Shown: positions 3,712-30,911 of the stretch, piece after piece
Numbering within the stretch: position 1 is the stretch's first letter
Layout of the letters: each line of letters opens with the position of its first letter
NCBI GenBank assembly: GCA_001001115.1
Contig: LCIO01000001.1
Coordinates: forward strand, 71,501 to 135,500
From: Candidatus Wolfebacteria bacterium GW2011_GWA1_44_24
Lineage (GTDB): Bacteria > Patescibacteriota > Minisyncoccia > UBA6257 > UBA9933
DNA length: 64,000 nucleotides
Reading direction: 5' to 3'
Made by a program: the position numbers and the translations under genes
Notes under the pieces: generated by a model
The model's input: the letters and a program-made list of their open reading frames with translations, nothing else
Databases searched by the model: none
What the model was told of the DNA's origin: nothing

Positions 3712-6688
<2,977 letters not shown>

Positions 6689-22881: not shown

Positions 22882-24000
22882 TTATTTTTTATCTTTTAAT
22901 TTTTCCGGCAAAAAACTGTCTTTGGAGTATTTTTCGTACTCCTTGCCGTACCCCAATTCTTTCATTAACTTAGTTTCAGGATTGCGCAAATTTAAAGGAA
23001 TAGGCAGGTTGCCAAATTTTTTAACATCCGCCATCGCCTCCATATACGCCTCATAGGCGCTCCTGTCTTTTTTACATTGACACAAATATGCGACTCCATG
23101 CGCCAAGTTAATTCCGCATTCCGGCAAGCCGATTATCTCCACCGCCCTAAAAACATCATTTGCCACCATAAGAGCCGCCGGCTGAGCCAAACCGACATCT
23201 TCGCTGGCAAAAATAACCATCCGTCGGGCAATAAATTTCGGGTCCTCTCCGGCGTCAATCATCCGCGCCAAATAATATAAAGCCGCGTCCGATTGGCCGG
23301 CTCTCATGCTTTTAATAAAAGCTGAAATTGTATTGTAATGCTCCTCTCCTTTTTTATCATAACGCAGAAACTTTGATTGCAAAGCATTCTTCAAATTATC
23401 AACCGTGATTTTTCCGTATAAGCTATTTGTATTTTCGAGTATCGTAATCGCCTGTCTTGCGTCGCCATTTGCCATATTTATCAGCCAATCGCGCGTTTCT
23501 TTGTCCATCTTAAAACCGACGCGCTTTATAATTTTTGCCATCTCTTCGTCTGATAAAGAGTTTAAAATAAAAACGCGGCAACGAGAAAGAAGCGGAGAAA
23601 TAACTTCAAAACTGGGATTCTCCGTGGTAGCGCCGATTAAAGTAATTTTACCGTTTTCCGCAAAAGGCAATAAATAATCCTGTTGGGCTTTATTAAAGCG
23701 GTGGATTTCATCCAAAAATAAAACCTTTGGCTTGCCCCAAGAATTTTCTTCAATAGCGCGTTTAATGTCTTCTTTGCCGGCCGAAACCGCGGAAAGCTCG
23801 TAGATTTGAGCGTCAAGAGCGCTCGCGTATATTTTCGCCAAAGTTGTTTTTCCGCTCCCCGGCGGACCCCACAAAATAAACGAAAAAAGGTGTTTGTTTT
23901 TAACGGCAATATTCAACGGCTTATTTTCCCCAACCAAATGCTCCTGTCCGATAAATTCTTTTAGAGTTTTAGGCCTGATTTTTGACGCCAATGGTTCCAT
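22882..24000 (-). CDS. rarA: replication-associated recombination protein A (AAA+ ATPase)
   Basis: FIGQEHLVGENKPL, Walker A GPPGSGKTTLA, Walker B VLFLDEIHRFNK, and a MgsA-type C-terminal domain. Confidence 0.8.
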   Translation of the reverse strand: MEPLASKIRPKTLKEFIGQEHLVGENKPLNIAVKNKHLFSFILWGPPGSGKTTLAKIYASALDAQIYELSAVSAGKEDIKRAIEENSWGKPKVLFLDEIHRFNKAQQDYLLPFAENGKITLIGATTENPSFEVISPLLSRCRVFILNSLSDEEMAKIIKRVGFKMDKETRDWLINMANGDARQAITILENTNSLYGKITVDNLKNALQSKFLRYDKKGEEHYNTISAFIKSMRAGQSDAALYYLARMIDAGEDPKFIARRMVIFASEDVGLAQPAALMVANDVFRAVEIIGLPECGINLAHGVAYLCQCKKDRSAYEAYMEAMADVKKFGNLPIPLNLRNPETKLMKELGYGKEYEKYSKDSFLPEKLKDKK

Positions 24001-24307
24001 ACGCCTTTATACTACTATCAAAACTCCTCTTTATCAAAGAAAAACTTGTGGTTCGCACTATTGTTTGAAAAAACTCCCGTTTGGAAGTTTTGCGCTCGAA
24101 CCTGTGAAAAAGCCCACCAATAAAGAGAAAAGTGCCGCTTTTCGCGATATTCATCCTATTTGGCTCCACACCCTGAACGAAATCCGAACGCATTTTCGGG
24201 AAACCCCCGACGAATGAAGCCGCCCCGCCGCCGCTCGCTAACGCTCGCCAGCCAGCAAAAAAGTTTTCTCTGCATTTCTGATTTTGCACGCGCCGGATTT
24301 TTTCTTC

Positions 24308-24488
24308 TAAAAGGAAAAGAAAACTTTTTTGCTGGGTTCTGCTCTCAACGAGCAGGCGGCGGGGCTGGCCTCTTTTGTATTCGCTCGGACGACTCGGCAT
24401 TACTCCCGACGACTCGGCATTACTCCCCCCCCCCAACCCCCTCCTGCCGAGCCATCCTCGCTTCGGCAAAAGGATTTTTTGGCGGCGG
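24308..24488. repeat. left arm of a GC-rich inverted repeat pair (about 181 nt)
   Basis: It is about 95 percent identical to the reverse complement of 29168-29356. It contains a 20 nt tandem duplication (GACGACTCGGCATTACTCCC x2) and a C(10-11) homopolymer, and it is embedded in an otherwise AT-rich genome. Confidence 0.85.
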
Positions 24489-24512
24489 ATAGTGTCCTGT
24501 GGATAATTCCCC

Positions 24513-24540
24513 CTTGATTGAACTTATACGTTTTGTATAA
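24513..24540 (+). promoter_or_regulatory. sigma70-like promoter TTGATT-16-TATAAT facing into the cassette
   Basis: TTGATT at about 24513-18 and TATAAT at about 24535-40, immediately inside the left inverted repeat, reading toward the structured leader and the XRE-RT-MTase genes. Confidence 0.4.
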
Positions 24541-24544
24541 TACT

Positions 24545-25060
24545 AAGTAGGACGGTTGCAGTTTAAAAATCAATTCGCGCGAGATCGGTTATCACTTCGA
24601 AGATTCTAGATCATTCTCTGTTATTGAGAATATCTGACCTCTCCTGTTTTGACAAGGAGTGGACCTTGCCCCGACATGTATATACATGTGTGCCCTATGC
24701 TTCATGTAATCCTTGAGGGACAAGTTAAGTCAAGTTGCTTTAGGCGTTGAGCTTAATGCTTCACTTGCACAGGGACTGCCATAACCTCACGGTTACTGGT
24801 ATTACCGGAAGGTTTTTATCGAAAACTGATAACCGTGAGGAGTTGGTGTGTTCCGCGTAGTAAATTAAAGGTCAATTATTAACCGTCCCCTTTAACTAAA
24901 AACACATGGAGCAAACAATGAAACACCAAAATCCAATTGCTGAATTGTGCCTTCCGTATAAAGGGGCGATTATCATTTATGAAGTGGTTGAGGTGCTTAC
25001 GGATAATTTTACAAATTATCCGTATCCTCAAAGACCTTCTGCGGTAATCGCCCCTTAGTC
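24545..25060 (+). ncRNA. about 520 nt highly structured leader / candidate ncRNA upstream of the XRE-RT operon (possible retron-like msr/msd region)
   Basis: No long ORF. It has a perfect 16 nt palindrome ACATGTATATACATGT (24673-24688). A long hairpin has an 11 bp perfect stem CCTCACGGTTA / TAACCGTGAGG (24784-24839) enclosing a nested GTTTT-TATCG-AAAAC hairpin, plus several further stem-loops. It lies between the promoter and the XRE start. Confidence 0.3.
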
Positions 25061-25067
25061 GTTCTAT

Positions 25068-25394
25068 ATGTATACATTTCCTGATTTAATCAAAAAAATT
25101 AGAGACGAAGCTGGTTTAACTCAAGCCGAATTTGCAAAAGCACTCGGCGTATCTGCTGTGCTTATTGCAATGGTAGAAACTGGTCAAAAAGAAGTTTCAA
25201 AAAATTTGCTTATTAAAATTGCTGAATTATTAAATGTTCATCCTTCATCAATAACTCCGTTTCTGTTTATAGATAGAGAGAAATTCAGTAAAGACCCTTC
25301 AGCAATAGATAAAAAATTTATTGAATGGGGGGAGAAAATGCAAACGCACTTAATAAAAGATCGGGCGAAACTCCTCAAAAAATATGCAAACTAG
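25068..25394 (+). CDS. XRE-family HTH transcriptional regulator
   Basis: 108 aa with the HTH_3 motif LTQAEFAKALGVSAVLIAMVETGQKEVSKNLLIKIAELLNV. The start codon sits within the palindrome ATGTATACAT, and the 3' end overlaps the RT start by 11 nt. Confidence 0.7.
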   Translation: MYTFPDLIKKIRDEAGLTQAEFAKALGVSAVLIAMVETGQKEVSKNLLIKIAELLNVHPSSITPFLFIDREKFSKDPSAIDKKFIEWGEKMQTHLIKDRAKLLKKYAN

Positions 25395-26310
25395 TAGATA
25401 CCCAAAACTTTACATACGGAGCAAGAACGAACTGGCAAAACATTTAAGCCATAGTAAGTTTCCGAAAGAGGAGGCGTTGGCTTTAATAAACGACACTCTT
25501 AAAAACTTTAACAAATATTGGAAAGATAACGAATATAAATCAGAACCAGAAAAAGAAAAATTTGTCAGAAGTGCGAAGGGCACACCACTAGGGAGGCTTT
25601 TAGATAACATTAACAAGTCTGTTCTTGCCCCACATGATAAAATGCTCCCCGTTTTTATATTTGGCGGTGTGAAAAATATGAACCATGCGAAAGCGGCAAA
25701 GTATTTACTCGGGAGAAAGCGAAAACGAACCTCTCTAAAATTAGATATAGCTCGCTTCTTTGAACAAATAAGTGAAGAAAGAGTTTATCACTTCCTCCAT
25801 GACAAGTGCGCGTGTAGTAAAAGGGCCGCAAAATTACTTGCAGGTTTTTGTTGTGTACCTAAGGGGCACAAGGGATCCGGTTTTGAATATAAAACGATAG
25901 CTCGCGGATTTGCCACATCCTCACGTCTTGCCATCTGGTGCAATTTAGACACTTTTATCAGGCTGGATCGTCTTGTTCAAAAACGACTTAAAGGGAAAGA
26001 CGCTCGTATCGCTATTTATGTTGATGATATTGGAATAACTGCTAGCAGAGTATCAAAAGAAGAAATGAAAAAGTTATCTGACGAAATTACAAAGCTTCTA
26101 CTAAATGCAGACAGAAACCAAAGATTGCCGATAAATGAGAAAAAGACAAAAATATCTTCCCACGAGGAGGGTATAGAACATCTTGGCTTGCGGTTATACA
26201 GAAATAGATTGTCTGTTGGCGCAAAAACAAAATCAAAAATAGATAGGGCAAGGAATAAAAGTGAACGCAAGCCACTGATTAGATACAAGCATTATGTTGA
26301 GAAAATCTGA
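25384..26310 (+). CDS. reverse transcriptase, retron-like (308 aa)
   Basis: RT motifs LKLDIARFFEQI (motif 2, compare Ec86 LNIDLEDFFPSL), TIARGFATSSRLAIWCNL (motif 4), AIYVDDIGITA (YxDD motif 5), LPINEKKTKI (motif 6, compare Ec86 LVINSKKTCI) and EHLGLRL (motif 7 position). Its size fits retron RTs. Confidence 0.8.
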   Translation: MQTSRYPKLYIRSKNELAKHLSHSKFPKEEALALINDTLKNFNKYWKDNEYKSEPEKEKFVRSAKGTPLGRLLDNINKSVLAPHDKMLPVFIFGGVKNMNHAKAAKYLLGRKRKRTSLKLDIARFFEQISEERVYHFLHDKCACSKRAAKLLAGFCCVPKGHKGSGFEYKTIARGFATSSRLAIWCNLDTFIRLDRLVQKRLKGKDARIAIYVDDIGITASRVSKEEMKKLSDEITKLLLNADRNQRLPINEKKTKISSHEEGIEHLGLRLYRNRLSVGAKTKSKIDRARNKSERKPLIRYKHYVEKI

Positions 26311-26318
26311 TTGCTTGT

Positions 26319-27956
26319 ATGGAAAACTTTGTGTATACTAAAGTTAGCGAGAAAATTATGACCCCCGGTTACGAAAACGATTTAGAGAACGAATATTCAA
26401 AAACTGTCGACCTAGAGCATAGGCGTGCTTTTGGGCAATTCTTTACCCCCTTTAAAATTGCAAAGTTTATGTCGGAGTGGGTTTTAGATAGTGAAAAACA
26501 GGAAATGGAGGTTTTAGATCCAGCCGCGGGCTTTGGGATTTTCCCTCGCGTAATGTCTTCCTTTAATAAGCGAAAAAAAATTAACTTTGACCTCTGGGAG
26601 ATAGACGAAAACATCGCAAAAAAACTAAAAGATGTTATACAAGAAATTAAAATGGAGGCGGTGATACATCAAGCAGATTTTCTAAAAAATGGCTGGGACA
26701 AAAAATATGACGGTATTATTGCAAATCCGCCATATTTCAAACACCACTACATAAATGAAAAAGAGAAAGTTTTTCAGGAAATTTGTCTGCGAACATACTT
26801 TAGATTTAGTATTCAAACTAATATTTACTGCTGGTTTTTAATTAAAGCTATAAATTTACTTGATAAAGGGGGGAGGTTAGCATTTATTGTGCCAAGTGAA
26901 TTTTTTAATGCGAACTATGGTGAAAAAGTTAAAGAGTATCTAAAACAATGTGGTGTTGTCCTTCATTTTATCAGCGTTAATTTTGAGGAAAATGTTTTTG
27001 ATAATGCACTGACTACATCAGTAATTATTCTTGCCGAGAAAAGTCCACAGAAGCATGAAAGTATAAATTTTTACACAGTGCATAATGTGAAAGAACTCGT
27101 TTCTGTAAAAGATTTTCTCAACAAACACCCAAAAAAGACCTTCAAGATTGCTGACCTAAATCCTAAAACAAAATGGAGAAATTATTTTAATGGCGATAAA
27201 GATATATTCTCGAAAGAACTTGTCTCACTTTCGACATTCGGCAAATTTTCTAGGGGCATAGCAACGGGGGCAAATCATTATTTCACACTTTCCTTACCAG
27301 AAGTTGAGGAGCATAAAATATCAAAAAAATGCCTGCGCCCATGTATCACAAAAGCCGTGCACGCGAAAGATATTTACTTTAGTGACGAGCATTTTGATAA
27401 ACTCAGGGAACAAGAAAAGAAAGTTTATTTATTTGATGGGGAAAAATCACAAGAACAAAGTTGTAAAAACTATATTGCACTTGGGGAAAAACAGGGTGTC
27501 AGTCAAAAATATCTTACAAAAAATCGAGATCCGTGGTATGCGCTAGAAAAAAGAGATGTTGCCCCGATTTGGGTAACGGTTTTTGGGAGAAGTGGTTTAA
27601 AATTTGTATGGAACGATTCTTCCTGTATTAACCTAACTTGTTTTCATGCTTTTTATCCTACCGAATTAGGAAAAAACTACCTAGATATATTATTTATTTA
27701 TCTGTATTCAAATACGGCCCAAAAATTATTTGACAGAGAAAAAAGAGAATATGGCGGGGGGCTTGGAAAATTTGAGCCAAACGATCTTAACAAAGCTTTT
27801 GTTGTCGATTTTAGATTGCTCGACAAGAAACAAATCTCTATTTTAGCGAACCTCCAAAGAGATTTTCTCAAATCAGAAAAAAACGAAAGAGAACAATTTT
27901 TGAAAAAAGCTGATGATATTTTTAAACCTCTTGCTCAATCAGTTTTTTCAAAATAG
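26319..27956 (+). CDS. N6-adenine DNA methyltransferase, gamma class (M.TaqI/Eco57I-like) with C-terminal target-recognition domain
   Basis: Motif X FGQFFTP, motif I VLDPAAGFGIF, motif IV IIANPPYF (NPPY), then a ~300 aa variable domain. It starts 8 nt after the RT stop. Confidence 0.85.
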   Translation: MENFVYTKVSEKIMTPGYENDLENEYSKTVDLEHRRAFGQFFTPFKIAKFMSEWVLDSEKQEMEVLDPAAGFGIFPRVMSSFNKRKKINFDLWEIDENIAKKLKDVIQEIKMEAVIHQADFLKNGWDKKYDGIIANPPYFKHHYINEKEKVFQEICLRTYFRFSIQTNIYCWFLIKAINLLDKGGRLAFIVPSEFFNANYGEKVKEYLKQCGVVLHFISVNFEENVFDNALTTSVIILAEKSPQKHESINFYTVHNVKELVSVKDFLNKHPKKTFKIADLNPKTKWRNYFNGDKDIFSKELVSLSTFGKFSRGIATGANHYFTLSLPEVEEHKISKKCLRPCITKAVHAKDIYFSDEHFDKLREQEKKVYLFDGEKSQEQSCKNYIALGEKQGVSQKYLTKNRDPWYALEKRDVAPIWVTVFGRSGLKFVWNDSSCINLTCFHAFYPTELGKNYLDILFIYLYSNTAQKLFDREKREYGGGLGKFEPNDLNKAFVVDFRLLDKKQISILANLQRDFLKSEKNEREQFLKKADDIFKPLAQSVFSK

Positions 27957-28818
27957 CTTCATCAAGTTTTGCCTTGCCACCCTCAAAGCTTACGTGATGA
28001 AGAAGCCTCCCTCCGGCAAGCTCTTTTCTTATACCCAAAAGATTCGGCTCGCCTATATTTTCGCTTATTAAATGACCATTGTTTAAATACATGTGAATGG
28101 TCTCCTTGTACTGATTTTTAGGATTCTTTTCAATAACAAAAGCTAGTGCGTCATTTTTTAAACCGACAACCTTTTTATTTTTGATACCCTTTTCTGAAAT
28201 ATCTGTGTCTCTCAATAATGACAAAATTTCGCTGAACGATATCACATAGATTGCATCAAAAAATACTTGAACGTAAAAATGCGGAACATTAAAAGTATCA
28301 ATCCATTTTAGTACGATCAAAAGATCCTCCACTTTTGGAGTGAAACTCAAAAACGGACGTTCTTTTTTGGCGATAAATTTTTTTGTTAGATATGCGCTAG
28401 ATCGCACTTCAAATCCCGCTGTCGCTTGCGGAACAATTTTTGCAAGTTCTCCATGAGATAATTTACTGATATCGTCACCCCATTCTTTTTTGTAAATTTT
28501 GGGGTCAAATAGTAAAACATCAGGCCTCTTACCGATTGCGTCCAGCTCATCTTGATACTGATTATAAAAGTCTTTGAAGTCGGGGTCTCCAGCAATAATC
28601 TTGTCTGATTTCCCATATCTAACGGGGACTAAATCAAGGTTAGATGCTTTAAGGGAACGAAAGAAAAGCATCTCCGCCCAATCTCCTTGTTCGTTGTGTG
28701 TAAGAAAATCAGAAAATGCTTGCGTGGGTGGTGTTCCTCTCTTGCGTTTCGCTCCCAGATTAACAATATTTGGCGAAATATCCTTCGCAATTTTATGTAT
28801 TTTGTCCTTATAACTCAT
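27922..28818 (-). CDS. putative type II restriction endonuclease (cognate of the methyltransferase)
   Basis: 298 aa with no strong family match. A possible PD...(D/E)xK-like core is PDVLLFD ... GFEVRSS. It is translationally coupled (ATGA overlap) to the upstream C-protein gene, and its 3' end overlaps the convergent MTase by 35 nt. Confidence 0.45.
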   Translation of the reverse strand: MSYKDKIHKIAKDISPNIVNLGAKRKRGTPPTQAFSDFLTHNEQGDWAEMLFFRSLKASNLDLVPVRYGKSDKIIAGDPDFKDFYNQYQDELDAIGKRPDVLLFDPKIYKKEWGDDISKLSHGELAKIVPQATAGFEVRSSAYLTKKFIAKKERPFLSFTPKVEDLLIVLKWIDTFNVPHFYVQVFFDAIYVISFSEILSLLRDTDISEKGIKNKKVVGLKNDALAFVIEKNPKNQYKETIHMYLNNGHLISENIGEPNLLGIRKELAGGRLLHHVSFEGGKAKLDEAILKKLIEQEV

Positions 28819-29054
28819 ATTCCTTTGAAAAAATCAGAGATGCTGATTTTTAGCGCTTTAGAAACTTTTTCGATATTTTCAAGCGTTATGTTCTTTTCTG
28901 CTCGTTCAATCATGCCGATATATGTCCGGTGAACACCGGCGCGTGAGGCTAATTCTTCCTGTGATAAACCTAACCTCGCCCGCTCCTCGCGGACTTTTTT
29001 ACCAAATTTGATAAGGATTTCTCTTTTCATAGTTGATAACTGTAGTATATCCAC
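28815..29054 (-). CDS. controller (C) protein, XRE-family HTH
   Basis: 79 aa; LSQEELASRAGVHRTYIGMIERAEKNITLENIEKVSKAL HTH. It sits immediately upstream of, and overlaps, the putative REase gene, the classic C-R arrangement. Confidence 0.65.
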   Translation of the reverse strand: MDILQLSTMKREILIKFGKKVREERARLGLSQEELASRAGVHRTYIGMIERAEKNITLENIEKVSKALKISISDFFKGI

Positions 29055-29167
29055 TTGCTAACTTTGGTGCTACATACTATAGTTAGCGTATGGATTTATT
29101 GATTTTAGGGAGTTCCTACAACTTGCCCGCGCACGGGAGCGGTGGGGCAAGGGCAAGAATAAATAAT

Positions 29168-29356
29168 TCCGCCGCCAAAAAATCCTTTTGCCGAAGCGAG
29201 GACGGCTCGGCAGGAGGGGGTTGGGGGGGAGTAATGCCGAGTCGTCCGAGCGAATACAAAAGAGGCCAGCCCCGCCGCCTGCTCGTTGAGAGCAGAACCC
29301 AGCAAAAAAGTTTTCTTTTCCGCAGAACCCAGCAAAAAAGTTTTCTTTTCCTTTTT
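29168..29356. repeat. right arm of the GC-rich inverted repeat pair (about 189 nt)
   Basis: Reverse-complement match to 24308-24488. It carries a 30 nt tandem duplication (GCAGAACCCAGCAAAAAAGTTTTCTTTTCC x2) and G-runs (GGGGGTTGGGGGGGA). Confidence 0.85.
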
Positions 29357-29424
29357 CCTTCGACTTTGCTTAGGATGGTGAATTTGCCGAACCACAAGTT
29401 TTTCTTTGGCGGCAAATTCCATTT

Positions 29425-30174
29425 CTAAAGATTAAACAACAACTTGATTATTAACGCTATAACAACCACTATGAGTAACCCTCTAAGCCACTTATCACCA
29501 AACTTTAGTGCAGTGTGTGCGCCGATATACGAGCCCACCATTGAAGTAATGGCCAATGGCACCGCAAGAGAAAAATCGATGTTGTCTCTTCTTACAAAAA
29601 CAAAAAGTGCCGCAATAAGCATAATGGCGGTAACAAAAACAGAATCAGCAATTCCTTGCATTAAGTCTCTACCAAGCAACAAGACAAATAAAAATATCAA
29701 AAATGTTGCGACCCCTACCGAAAAGAACCCGCCGTATATACCCAAGATGAAACATAAAATACCTGCAATAATAAAATCTTTTCTATTGAGTTTTTTGTTT
29801 TCAATCTCAAGGCCAGCAGAAGGTTTTTTGAAAATCAAAAAGATTAAGCCGAAAAAGAAAATAGCAACAATTTTAGATAAAATCTCTTTGTTAATATCAA
29901 GGACAAGATTAGCACCGATAAAAGCACCTATGAGCGAGATTATGGAGAGAGGTAAAACAATTCTAAAATTTATTTTATGGTTCTTCCAATATTTGAAGAC
30001 CGCAACGACATTTATCAACCACCCCGAAAGAATATTGGTACCAATGGCTAATGTGGGTGTTAGCCCAAGAAAAAGTAGAGCTGGCAACGTAATGAGTGCT
30101 CCGGCACCAACTTGTGCCCCTACAAATCCCCCCACCAAACCGGCAAGAGATATAAAAATTAAACTAAAATCCAT
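29425..30174 (-). CDS. TauE/SafE (DUF81) family sulfite/anion exporter
   Basis: 249 aa, 7-8 TM segments; N-terminal LAGLVGGFVGAQVGAGALITLPALLFLGL typical of the family. Confidence 0.7.
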   Translation of the reverse strand: MDFSLIFISLAGLVGGFVGAQVGAGALITLPALLFLGLTPTLAIGTNILSGWLINVVAVFKYWKNHKINFRIVLPLSIISLIGAFIGANLVLDINKEILSKIVAIFFFGLIFLIFKKPSAGLEIENKKLNRKDFIIAGILCFILGIYGGFFSVGVATFLIFLFVLLLGRDLMQGIADSVFVTAIMLIAALFVFVRRDNIDFSLAVPLAITSMVGSYIGAHTALKFGDKWLRGLLIVVVIALIIKLLFNL

Positions 30175-30306: not shown

Positions 30307-30381
30307 TGGCTCCGCGGGTAGGATTCGAACCTACGACCAATCGCTTAACAGGCGACCGCTCTACCACTGAGCTACCGCGGA
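30307..30381 (-). tRNA. tRNA-Asn (anticodon GTT), CCA encoded
   Basis: Acceptor TCCGCGG/CCGCGGA, D arm GCTC-AGTGGTA-GAGC, anticodon stem GTCGC/GCGAT with loop CTGTTAA, and T arm GTAGG-TTCGAAT-CCTAC. Confidence 0.85.
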
Positions 30382-30416: not shown

Positions 30417-30911
30417 TCAATTCTTGGGCGGGTAAACAGCCATCAACCATCTCAAAATCAAATCGCTCGGTTTTCTGATTTTTTCGCCCGGGAAATCAAA
30501 CCAAACCCTTTCAAATGTTTTCAAATCCATTTTTCTGACTTTGCCGATTTCTGGATCGGCCAGAAAAATATGATTTTTCGTCGCGGCAACAATTGCGGAA
30601 TAATGGCCTTCGTCTTCCGAAAACCAATCCACTATAACCGGTATTTTCTTTTTCAAATAAAATTTAATGTCTTCCGAAGACGCGCCGGATTTGATAACAA
30701 ATTTCAATTTTATTTTTTTTAATCCTGTTCTGAATCCTCTTTCATCTGTCCCCTTTTCTCGGGTGGTCTTCAAAATTTCAGCCAGATAATTCTCGCCATA
30801 ATTCAATCCGTAAAAATCCAAAACCATTTTCAAAGCCACCGGCCCGCAAAAACCCGACTTTGTCTGTTTCATCGGTTTAATTTTCAATATCGTTGTCTTC
30901 ATCAATTTCAC
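30417..30911 (-). CDS. peptidase C39-like (papain-fold) domain protein
   Basis: KSGFCGPVALKMVLDFYG (catalytic Cys context) and a downstream GHY (His), as in bacteriocin-processing C39 peptidase domains. Confidence 0.45.
   Translation of the reverse strand: MKLMKTTILKIKPMKQTKSGFCGPVALKMVLDFYGLNYGENYLAEILKTTREKGTDERGFRTGLKKIKLKFVIKSGASSEDIKFYLKKKIPVIVDWFSEDEGHYSAIVAATKNHIFLADPEIGKVRKMDLKTFERVWFDFPGEKIRKPSDLILRWLMAVYPPKN

Follow-up and report, generated by a model that had tools for sequence, protein, structure and literature searches.

We were curious to see why a reverse transcriptase (RT) should be encoded directly beside a restriction-modification (R-M) system in a bacterium of the candidate phyla radiation (CPR/Patescibacteria), and whether the two form one system. 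The locus lies in a 64,000-nt stretch of Candidatus Wolfebacteria bacterium GW2011_GWA1_44_24 (contig LCIO01000001.1, positions 71,501 to 135,500 of the forward strand), which we refer to as the window and whose numbering is used throughout. A sequence-only reading had described, at 24308-29356, a cassette bounded by inverted repeats in which an XRE regulator, an RT and a DNA methyltransferase (MTase) were overlapping, translationally coupled genes, facing a controller (C) protein and a restriction endonuclease (REase); it had raised the idea of a hybrid in which the RT is an operonic partner of R-M. Profile searches and comparisons with homologous loci led us to a different view. The region is probably a two-system defence cassette of ~5.2 kb, in which a type VI retron and an autonomous, C-controlled type II R-M unit would be independent modules, physically linked between inverted copies of a ~290-nt element.

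The retron and restriction-modification genes

All five open reading frames (ORFs) of the earlier description (XRE, RT, MTase, REase, C) were found where it had placed them, and the spacings that it gave follow from the coordinates. On the plus strand, the gene of a 108-aa Cro/C1-type helix-turn-helix (HTH, XRE family) protein (25068-25394; Pfam HTH_3, 3e-15) overlaps by 11 nt that of a 308-aa RT with a YVDD motif (25384-26310; Pfam RVT_1, 2.6e-12). The longest MTase ORF (26319-27956, plus strand) has its ATG 8 nt past the RT stop and overlaps by 35 nt the convergent ORF of a 298-aa REase (27922-28818, minus strand). The C gene lies upstream of the REase gene in the same orientation, at 28815-29030 on the minus strand (71 aa; PADLOC Control_protein, 9e-23), within a longest ORF that opens with a GTG (28815-29054, 79 aa). 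Pfam and PADLOC matches bore out the gamma-class N6-adenine MTase (Eco57I, 4e-20; N6_Mtase, 3e-17; MTase_II, 2e-137) and its convergent C-protein/REase pair, with the REase assigned to the AccI family of type II enzymes (RE_AccI, 3.2e-81; REase_II, 4e-70). The cassette was not set apart as foreign by its base composition.

Of the 46 PADLOC RT models compared with the window RT, RT_VI came out on top (1.1e-27), with RT_IV as the runner-up (1.9e-17), and the best PADLOC model for the XRE protein was HTH_VI (4e-14). The RT has at least 445 homologues, nearly all from CPR/Patescibacteria and hundreds of them full-length. Its ORF is intact, and a comparison of 20 homologues found the catalytic residues V213, D214 and D215 invariant and Y212 at least 90% conserved, so that a degraded pseudogene, which the sequence-only reading had counted among the outcomes that would speak against it, is not what we see. 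Among 41 loci, each from a distinct genome, 37 had an HTH gene immediately 5' of the RT; the remaining four comprised two contig edges, one N-gap and one locus without a detectable HTH match.

Type VI retrons are defined by a clade-3 RT, a Cro/C1 HTH protein of 91-110 aa and small auxiliary proteins (Mestre et al. 2020, PMC7736814), and the 108 aa of the window HTH protein fall within that range. In the characterised members the HTH protein is an antitoxin/regulator or a partner of the RT (Vpa2, Zhang et al. 2025, bioRxiv 10.1101/2025.10.22.683967; Sen3, Garcia-Rodriguez et al. 2026, bioRxiv 10.64898/2026.04.27.721009), and the published systems are set off by phage recombination or RecBCD-inhibiting functions (same preprints). 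Judged by its profiles and architecture, the XRE-RT pair is a type VI retron. The earlier suggestion of a retron-type RT was thus upheld by the profile check that it had called for, by the cognate HTH gene and by the structured RNA described below.

Other resources were less discriminating. A phmmer search of the PDB with the RT returned no match; an RT profile matched PDB entries weakly, among group II and retron RTs (best, a group II maturase RT at 3e-6), at a level that does not discriminate subtype. NCBIfam, which has no type VI model, gave sub-threshold matches only (retron_St85, 1e-16). An Rfam scan of 23900-29500 with E up to 1 produced nothing but a chance snoRNA match; families of retron msr RNAs, group II introns and riboswitches were not matched. 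We found no RT relatives in viral contigs, which leaves a phage-borne origin unsupported.

The R-M unit has regulatory elements of its own at both ends. The C protein, from a family of 7974 members, has its best solved relatives in C.BclI (5e-16), C.AhdI (8e-13) and C.Esp1396I (8e-9). A promoter-like element for the MTase, P_M (TTGCTT-17-TATACT; 26311-26339, plus strand), forms the conserved left end of the regulatory frame; it scored below the threshold of our promoter scan and is a putative promoter. It is followed by an operator-like C-box half-site, ACTAAAGTTAGC (26337-26348, plus strand), a 12-nt motif found only twice in the 64 kb, at 26337 and upstream of C (29076). P_M starts 0-1 nt past the RT stop in the R-M variants of the RT crown clade and ~50 nt further downstream in locus L056, and the MTase ATG follows ACTAAAGTTAGC by 9-25 nt in the R-M-linked homologues. 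Since the ATG at 26319 falls inside the P_M spacer, the MTase probably starts at ATG 26358 (26358-27956, plus strand; 532 aa) and not at 26319. With P_M standing between the RT stop and ATG 26358, the MTase is unlikely to be translationally coupled to the RT. We make no claim of an extended -10 for P_M, as its TG is at non-canonical spacing.

The right end of the frame is the C/R promoter region (29031-29100, minus strand), which retains 80-85% nucleotide identity across variants with different MTase and REase (M/R) genes. It contains a C-box-like palindrome, GCTAACT-N17-AGTTAGC (29057-29087, minus strand), with the second copy of ACTAAAGTTAGC inside, and a -10-like TATACT (29049-29044, minus strand) beside an almost leaderless ATG at 29030. 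The C protein likely starts at this ATG (71 aa) rather than at GTG 29054 (79 aa), and the shared motifs suggest that it binds and regulates both promoters. In Esp1396I, the M and C-R units converge and each promoter has a C operator (Bogdanova et al. 2009, PMC2691842; PMC3758141), and AhdI is another C-protein-controlled type II precedent (PMC2275141). By its sequence, the MTase/REase/C set is an autonomous R-M unit of the Esp1396I style.

Is the retron tied to this unit? Of 57 distinct RTs, 13 were followed by the P_M junction motif, and all of these lie in a single part of the RT tree: the whole crown clade (85-100% identity) plus L056 (72%). The junction is the same in 12 of the 13, with L056 having the element 50 nt further downstream. 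It is absent from L052 (77%), L054 (79%), L006 (71%) and all more distant RTs, where the downstream genes are unrelated; for 44 of the 57 in total, no R-M genes are linked to the HTH-RT pair.

Where the junction is present, the genes behind it vary. AccI with a gamma-class MTase follows the retron in the window, L045, L050 and L053; BstXI with an N6_N4 MTase in L005, L063 and L064; an EcoRI-like REase with a D12 MTase in L055 and L056; and BsoBI with an N6_N4 MTase in L059 and L060. At least four unrelated M/R pairs have thus been exchanged within the frame, or seven when retron-free relatives are counted. Nucleotide homology between the variants breaks at ~26359 and resumes at ~28848-28867: the retron, P_M and the C gene with its operator region are common to them, and M and R alone are replaced. 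Even where identity in the retron drops to 71%, the C region retains 80-85%. Three abundant C proteins, 88-91% identical to that of the window, head retron-free C-R-M units with TaqI-, ScaI- or BglII-type REases. Because each occurs without the other, the R-M frame needs no retron and the retron needs no R-M.

The distribution of the junction across the RT tree indicates a linkage that is physical, inherited and derived from one ancestral juxtaposition. RT homologues beside R-M genes do exist, but co-occurrence does not extend across the family. The claim that would have mattered, an RT that is an operonic working part of R-M, does not hold: most RTs are unlinked, closely related C proteins serve units without retrons, the R-M unit has its own regulatory elements and its M/R pairs are interchangeable. 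Nothing in the sequence requires mechanistic dependence.

One unlinked arrangement was seen in two loci with an RT homologue of 79% identity. There, the next gene after the RT is an unrelated one of the XRE family (80 aa), on the opposite strand (L054 1800-2042, minus strand; L068 682-921), and no MTase, REase or P_M motif follows the RT.

The hybrid RNA and its two small reading frames

The sequence-only reading had placed a promoter and a 520-nt structured untranslated region ahead of the XRE gene. The promoter was borne out: TTGATT-16-TATAAT (24514-24541, plus strand; 10 of 12 matches) is the top promoter-like site of the region in the promoter scan and is kept in loci down to 51% RT identity. 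Over its -10 lies a palindrome, TATACGTTTTGTATA (24525-24539), conserved over the same range, which is likely the operator for the retron's XRE/HTH protein.

In type VI retrons, the upstream RNA is a hybrid RNA (hyRNA) of ~470 nt that combines the msr-msd with the coding sequence of a small toxic protein (SP), the ribosome-binding site of the latter being hidden by RNA structure (Zhang et al. 2025; Garcia-Rodriguez et al. 2026; 10.1101/2025.10.22.683967 and 10.64898/2026.04.27.721009). Long-range inverted repeats are a further feature of this RNA. We compared 24 aligned leaders. The region 24548-25067 (plus strand), with its 5' end at 24548 placed from the promoter, combines an msr-msd-like structured domain with a small-ORF region. 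The predicted helices comprise a closing, a1/a2-like helix (24550-57/24881-88), two further helices (24608-18/24626-35 and 24785-95/24830-40), a pseudoknot (24806-13/24949-56) and a stem that sequesters an AAGGGG Shine-Dalgarno (SD)-like element (24962-74/25043-55).

An unbiased RNAalifold consensus had compensatory changes in 29 of 40 pairs and contained two well-supported stems: the long-range 8-bp stem 24806-13/24949-56, intact in every aligned sequence, and the 13-bp stem 24962-74/25043-55 that holds the AAGGGG element, with up to nine double-sided changes per pair. For a six-helix structure, 91.3% of cells pair, versus 35-48% when the partners are slid, and 38 of 50 pairs show double-sided compensatory changes; none of 500 shuffles reached the observed values. 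Covariation thus identifies the leader as a retron hybrid RNA. As part of the overall reading that we consider probable, it would be about 510 nt long and driven by the palindrome-bearing promoter.

The leader is structured, as had been claimed, but it is not an untranslated region. Small ORFs lie between the noncoding RNA (ncRNA) and the HTH gene in nearly all loci, and in the window there are two, in different frames. Frame A (24906-25058, plus strand; alternative ATG 24918) is the 50-aa ORF annotated by gene callers and ends 9 nt before the HTH start. Frame B (24979-25047, plus strand; ATG 24979), in the +1 frame relative to A, would encode the 22-aa amphipathic peptide MKWLRCLRIILQIIRILKDLLR. 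Its putative SD is the AAGGGG element within the covarying 13-bp stem.

The two frames are constrained in different ways. Over 30 loci, frame B has a codon-position entropy of 1.35/0.70/1.65, and 30.5% of its codon differences are synonymous; its peptide is Met-initiated and 18-31 aa long in 28 loci. In frame A the synonymous share is 3%, so that the peptide is not conserved. The frame is nonetheless stop-free across the overlap in 28 of 28 distinct loci, where ~14 would be expected to have a stop once frame B is reshuffled synonymously (0 of 2000 shuffles). The mean hydrophobic moment is 0.62 for frame B versus 0.19 for frame A. The entropy and synonymous pattern of B and the lack of stops in A place the constraint on the peptide in one frame and on openness in the other.

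Frame B is thus, by its codon statistics, under purifying selection. The toxic effector of the characterised type VI retrons is encoded by small-protein ORFs (Vpa2 and Sen3 preprints), and by analogy the frame-B peptide is the best candidate for the SP and would be the toxic component. Frame A may serve as a leader or a coupling ORF, its translation either opening the stem or being linked to the start of the HTH gene. A programmed +1 frameshift fusing the two frames was dropped as the simplest reading, several loci having a frame-B stop just upstream of the conserved Met. This two-frame constraint appears to be new, if not categorically so, and it bears directly on the current debate over toxin control in type VI retrons.

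The boundary element and its rearrangements

The inverted repeats that had been described as ~185 nt long and delimiting ~5 kb are present, and they belong to a larger boundary repeat (left copy ~315 nt). The arms 24309-24489 and 29168-29355 are 98-100% complementary (95 nt at 100%, 62 nt at 98% and 34 nt at 100%), with tandem duplications of 20 nt on the left (24388-24427) and 30 nt on the right (29292-29351). The repeat occurs only twice in the window, versus 0 in 100 shuffles. The left copy of the element is full-length (24173-24488, plus strand; nhmmer E=1.5e-67, profile positions 10-287). The right one is a truncated inverted copy consisting of the inner ~150 nt and the 30-nt duplication (29169-29409, minus strand; E=2.4e-39, profile 146-287, plus a partial second match). 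It ends in an outer 21-nt repeat (29388-29408) that is 100% complementary to a left arm, CAAAGAAAAACTTGTGGTTCG, at 24035-24055. The nhmmer profile found no further copy in the 64 kb.

The element belongs to a conserved, GC-rich palindromic family of ~290 nt (nhmmer, E down to 1e-91), and its predicted fold is a long, imperfect hairpin (z=-5.1). Over ~145 nt, the window repeat shares 73-75% identity with the ~290-nt repeats of retron-free BglII+Ea47 and TaqI+TIR-SEFIR cassettes, with an identical 34-nt core. With nhmmer, the element was found at the ends of other retron and R-M composites (L057, L059/60, L050 and L061). Pairs of the element with no retron between them enclose a BglII R-M unit with an Ea47-like gene (L086 5586-5867/9154-9435), a TaqI R-M unit with SEFIR/TIR (L080 1760-2055/6163-6456) and a block of DpnII, MTase and an AAA-ATPase (AAA_15/21) (L056 379-551/4452-4624). 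In all, no fewer than five cassettes with different contents, from different CPR lineages, have the element at their ends. When metagenome contigs were scanned for an exact 38-mer of the repeat there were 0 matches, a result of little weight, the outer repeat being strain-specific.

The composite was found in at least four genomic contexts, and sister cassettes occur in both orientations, with one or the other end attached to the same flanking gene (L086 versus L089; L077 versus L080). These variants are not graph ambiguity, because they were assembled through arms only 91-98% identical. The window cassette itself probably also exists in both orientations. In L092, an identical MgsA protein is adjoined by the C end, where the window has the retron end, with the outer 21-nt repeat at the junction. 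A flipped order would likewise be implied by the sequence of protein accessions in two published Wolfebacteria genomes with 380-kb contigs (RT KKR88815/MgsA KKR88818 and MgsA KKT56537/RT KKT56541). Related strains have at least three arrangements upstream of MgsA, and structural variation at the locus goes further than a simple flip.

Inversion probably proceeds by recombination between the repeats. Breakpoints in the 181-nt arms had been considered and were dropped, since L092 joins through the outer repeat. Genes of large serine recombinases (Resolvase + Recombinase + Zn_ribbon_recom) adjoin the outer side of the element in L059 (5006-6598), L080 (424-1608; also in L081) and L056 (4925-6486), and are candidate trans-acting enzymes for inversion or movement. 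Furuta, Abe and Kobayashi (2010, PMC2853133) reported R-M units that have long inverted repeats but no transposase, and regarded them as transposon-like. The earlier surmise that the unit is mobile or invertible gains support from its several contexts and its two orientations.

A few further observations concern these boundaries. Two related Wolfebacteria loci (L091 355-382 and L097 172-199) have, between the element and MgsA, an extra 30 nt, AGAGGCGCGGCGGAGCTGCGCCGATGACAA, and a copy of window 29353-29387, absent from the window. L057 has a 99%-identical cassette, yet its left 1.2 kb is without any match to the window. A homopolymeric C/G tract in the element is 10 long at 24426-24435, 7 at 29222-29228 and 10 in L092 (about 4205-4215). 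In L045 the retron and AccI composite, with HSP20 and LAGLIDADG-sortase flanks, lies between two perfect 41-nt palindromic, terminator-like hairpins (128-168 and 4949-4989), and no copy of the ~290-nt element was detected there; the hairpins may be a long target duplication.

Alternatives, proposed working and known systems

How far could the same observations be explained otherwise? One alternative is a functionally integrated hybrid, with retron and R-M wired together and selected as one system: the MTase would be co-transcribed with, or regulated by, the retron operon, or the retron would be a guard that fires when phage anti-restriction disables R-M. Such wiring would fit the position of P_M 0-1 nt past the RT stop in the crown clade and a junction that survives four M/R replacements and RT divergence to 72%. 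In the sister cassettes, R-M is always paired with an abortive-type passenger (TIR-SEFIR, Ea47 or an ATPase), which suggests a selected two-tier design, and the triggers reported in the type VI preprints are compatible with a guard role. We nevertheless consider this explanation unlikely. The linkage is missing in 44 of the 57 RT homologues, C-R-M frames are common without retrons, the unit has promoter-like and operator-like elements of its own and the identity of the R-M genes is irrelevant to the linkage; what is essentially a single junction speaks for one historical event, not recurrent convergence. At the opposite extreme, the modules could be chance neighbours in a defence island, with incidental repeats (duplicated terminators or insulators, or local repeats), no mobility, and orientation variants that are assembly ambiguity. 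Defence genes do cluster generally, the hairpin and T-run features of the element fit terminators, two MEGAHIT contigs of the cassette (L001 and L003) break inside the repeat, L092 has an N-gap in it, and neither a recombinase in the window nor the 38-mer in the metagenome collection was found. Such an accident is very improbable in our view: an element family with matches down to 1e-91, otherwise absent from the window, flanks five or more differently loaded cassettes, the composite recurs in at least four contexts, sister variants were assembled through non-identical arms and the gene order of two published genomes agrees with the flipped state.

It is harder still to credit that the RT belongs to another class (group II intron, diversity-generating retroelement (DGR), Abi/UG/DRT or CRISPR-associated) or is a decaying pseudogene, a possibility that we retain only nominally. 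It did have weaker PADLOC and NCBIfam matches to Drt3a, AbiA, UG17 and group II maturase, and its best PDB profile match was the group II maturase RT (3e-6). Against these stand a lead of ten orders of magnitude for RT_VI over the next class, an obligatory and conserved HTH partner, a structured upstream RNA that is conserved too, and an intact ORF whose catalytic motif is invariant and which has full-length homologues in the hundreds. The RT lacks a maturase or endonuclease domain, no intron RNA was matched in Rfam and no DGR template/variable repeats were found.

Several points weigh against the two-module, repeat-bounded cassette that we favor. The type VI assignment comes from PADLOC profiles and architecture, not from a phylogeny with reference RTs, and msDNA synthesis, peptide toxicity, C binding, promoter activity and phage defence are all deduced from sequence. 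The junction kept through four cargo swaps could reflect selection for linkage, and no terminator is predicted between RT and MTase, which would permit read-through from the retron promoter. As for rearrangement, L086 and L089 share one flank only, so that the change may exceed a simple inversion, and L092 carries a 10-N scaffold gap inside the repeat. Related strains offered no clean empty site upstream of MgsA, and no target-site duplication was established. Neither the cassette nor the 64-kb window contains a recombinase or transposase, and tblastn with three serine recombinases found none.

On the two-module reading that we favor, the cassette would work as follows. The hyRNA would contain the template domain for reverse transcription and encode a small toxic peptide whose translation is blocked by sequestration, with the HTH and RT genes after it. 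By analogy with Vpa2 and Sen3, a complex of HTH protein, RT and hyRNA would silence or neutralise the small protein until some cue from the phage frees it and the infection is aborted. The MTase would be read from its own promoter-like element after the RT stop, facing a C-REase operon, with C regulating through the shared operator-like motif. The two modules would provide layered defence, working independently and linked physically.

On a broader scale, the C gene and both regulatory ends would be kept while M/R genes are swapped. The slot beside R-M would be filled by the retron here and by TIR-SEFIR, Ea47-like or AAA-ATPase genes elsewhere, and the cassette would flip by recombination between its repeats. 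Judged by the loci compared, this cassette platform is widespread in CPR. That it is a dedicated platform for shuffling defence genes, in which ~290-nt palindromic ends (possibly served by serine recombinases in trans), a fixed C frame and a passenger slot travel as a unit that inverts and relocates, together with hok/mok-like gating of the retron toxin, is a tentative proposal that we would put forward as a possibility rather than an expectation. To our knowledge, no defence-gene shuffling platform of this kind has been described before. The gating may take the form of a 22-aa peptide translationally coupled to the overlapping open leader ORF, under the covarying, SD-sequestering hyRNA stem.

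Both modules are, by their sequence matches, members of known families, and there is no new hybrid enzyme system. The cassette platform with its conserved boundary element appears new, though again not categorically. What the locus offers is a large, clear type VI retron family in CPR/Patescibacteria with a well-supported hybrid-RNA structure, and a compact design in which the C gene and operator-bearing promoters stay fixed, restriction specificities are swapped and a second slot takes abortive-type modules. A conserved boundary element and natural orientation variants are documented in tiny-genome organisms that are thought to lean on R-M for defence. If the platform is truly mobile, it would help to explain how CPR bacteria diversify their defences.

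Two observations stand beside this account. In the TaqI-type cassettes, the MTase (L077 6905-8425, minus strand; L078-L081) is a 506-aa fusion of LexA_DNA_bind, Peptidase_S24 and an N6_N4 DNA methyltransferase; joining a LexA-like self-cleaving repressor to an MTase is an unusual combination that hints at damage-responsive control of methylation. In the window, ~1 kb to the right of the cassette and past a TauE-family gene, lie a tRNA-Asn gene (30307-30381, minus strand), without an associated integrase, and a C39-family peptidase gene (30417-30911, minus strand).

Comparison with known systems places each part of the cassette. With the type VI retrons Vpa2 and Sen3 it shares the order of structured RNA, small ORF, Cro/C1 HTH gene and overlapping RT gene, and a hybrid RNA of ~500 nt that embeds the small ORF with its ribosome-binding site in a conserved stem. 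It differs in its CPR host and in the physical joining of its subclade to an R-M unit, and msDNA and defence are here predictions. The candidate peptide is ~22 aa long, versus 55-79 aa for the published SPs, which are helical with a hydrophobic C-terminus, and lies in another frame than the annotated 50-aa ORF, which is itself kept open.

In hok/mok, the ORF of a small toxic peptide with a structurally sequestered SD is overlapped by a longer upstream ORF, an example of control by an overlapping leader ORF. The retron leader resembles it in its short hydrophobic or amphipathic peptide, its sequestered SD and a longer upstream ORF conserved in frame and not in peptide. It differs in that no antisense RNA is evident, the setting is a retron hybrid RNA and the translational coupling is conjectural.

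Like Esp1396I and AhdI, the R-M unit has a convergent M gene and C-R operon, a C protein homologous to solved controllers, palindromic C-box-like repeats upstream of C and a related operator-like site at the M promoter. Unlike them, it has an REase of the AccI family and a predicted operator sequence, GCTAACT/AGTTAGC, and its regulatory ends and C gene form a conserved frame with exchanged M/R pairs. The units of Furuta et al. (2010) likewise have R-M genes between long, unit-specific inverted repeats, no transposase inside and varied genomic contexts; the window repeats, in contrast, are ~290 nt long, palindromic and from a family common to many cassettes, and the unit is distinguished by a second defence module, orientation variants and no established short target-site duplication. 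As in defence islands and multi-system cassettes, a restriction system stands beside one of the abortive-infection type and is inherited with it as a block; here, however, the block is a compact, repeat-bounded unit with a fixed layout, an R-M regulatory frame with one passenger slot.

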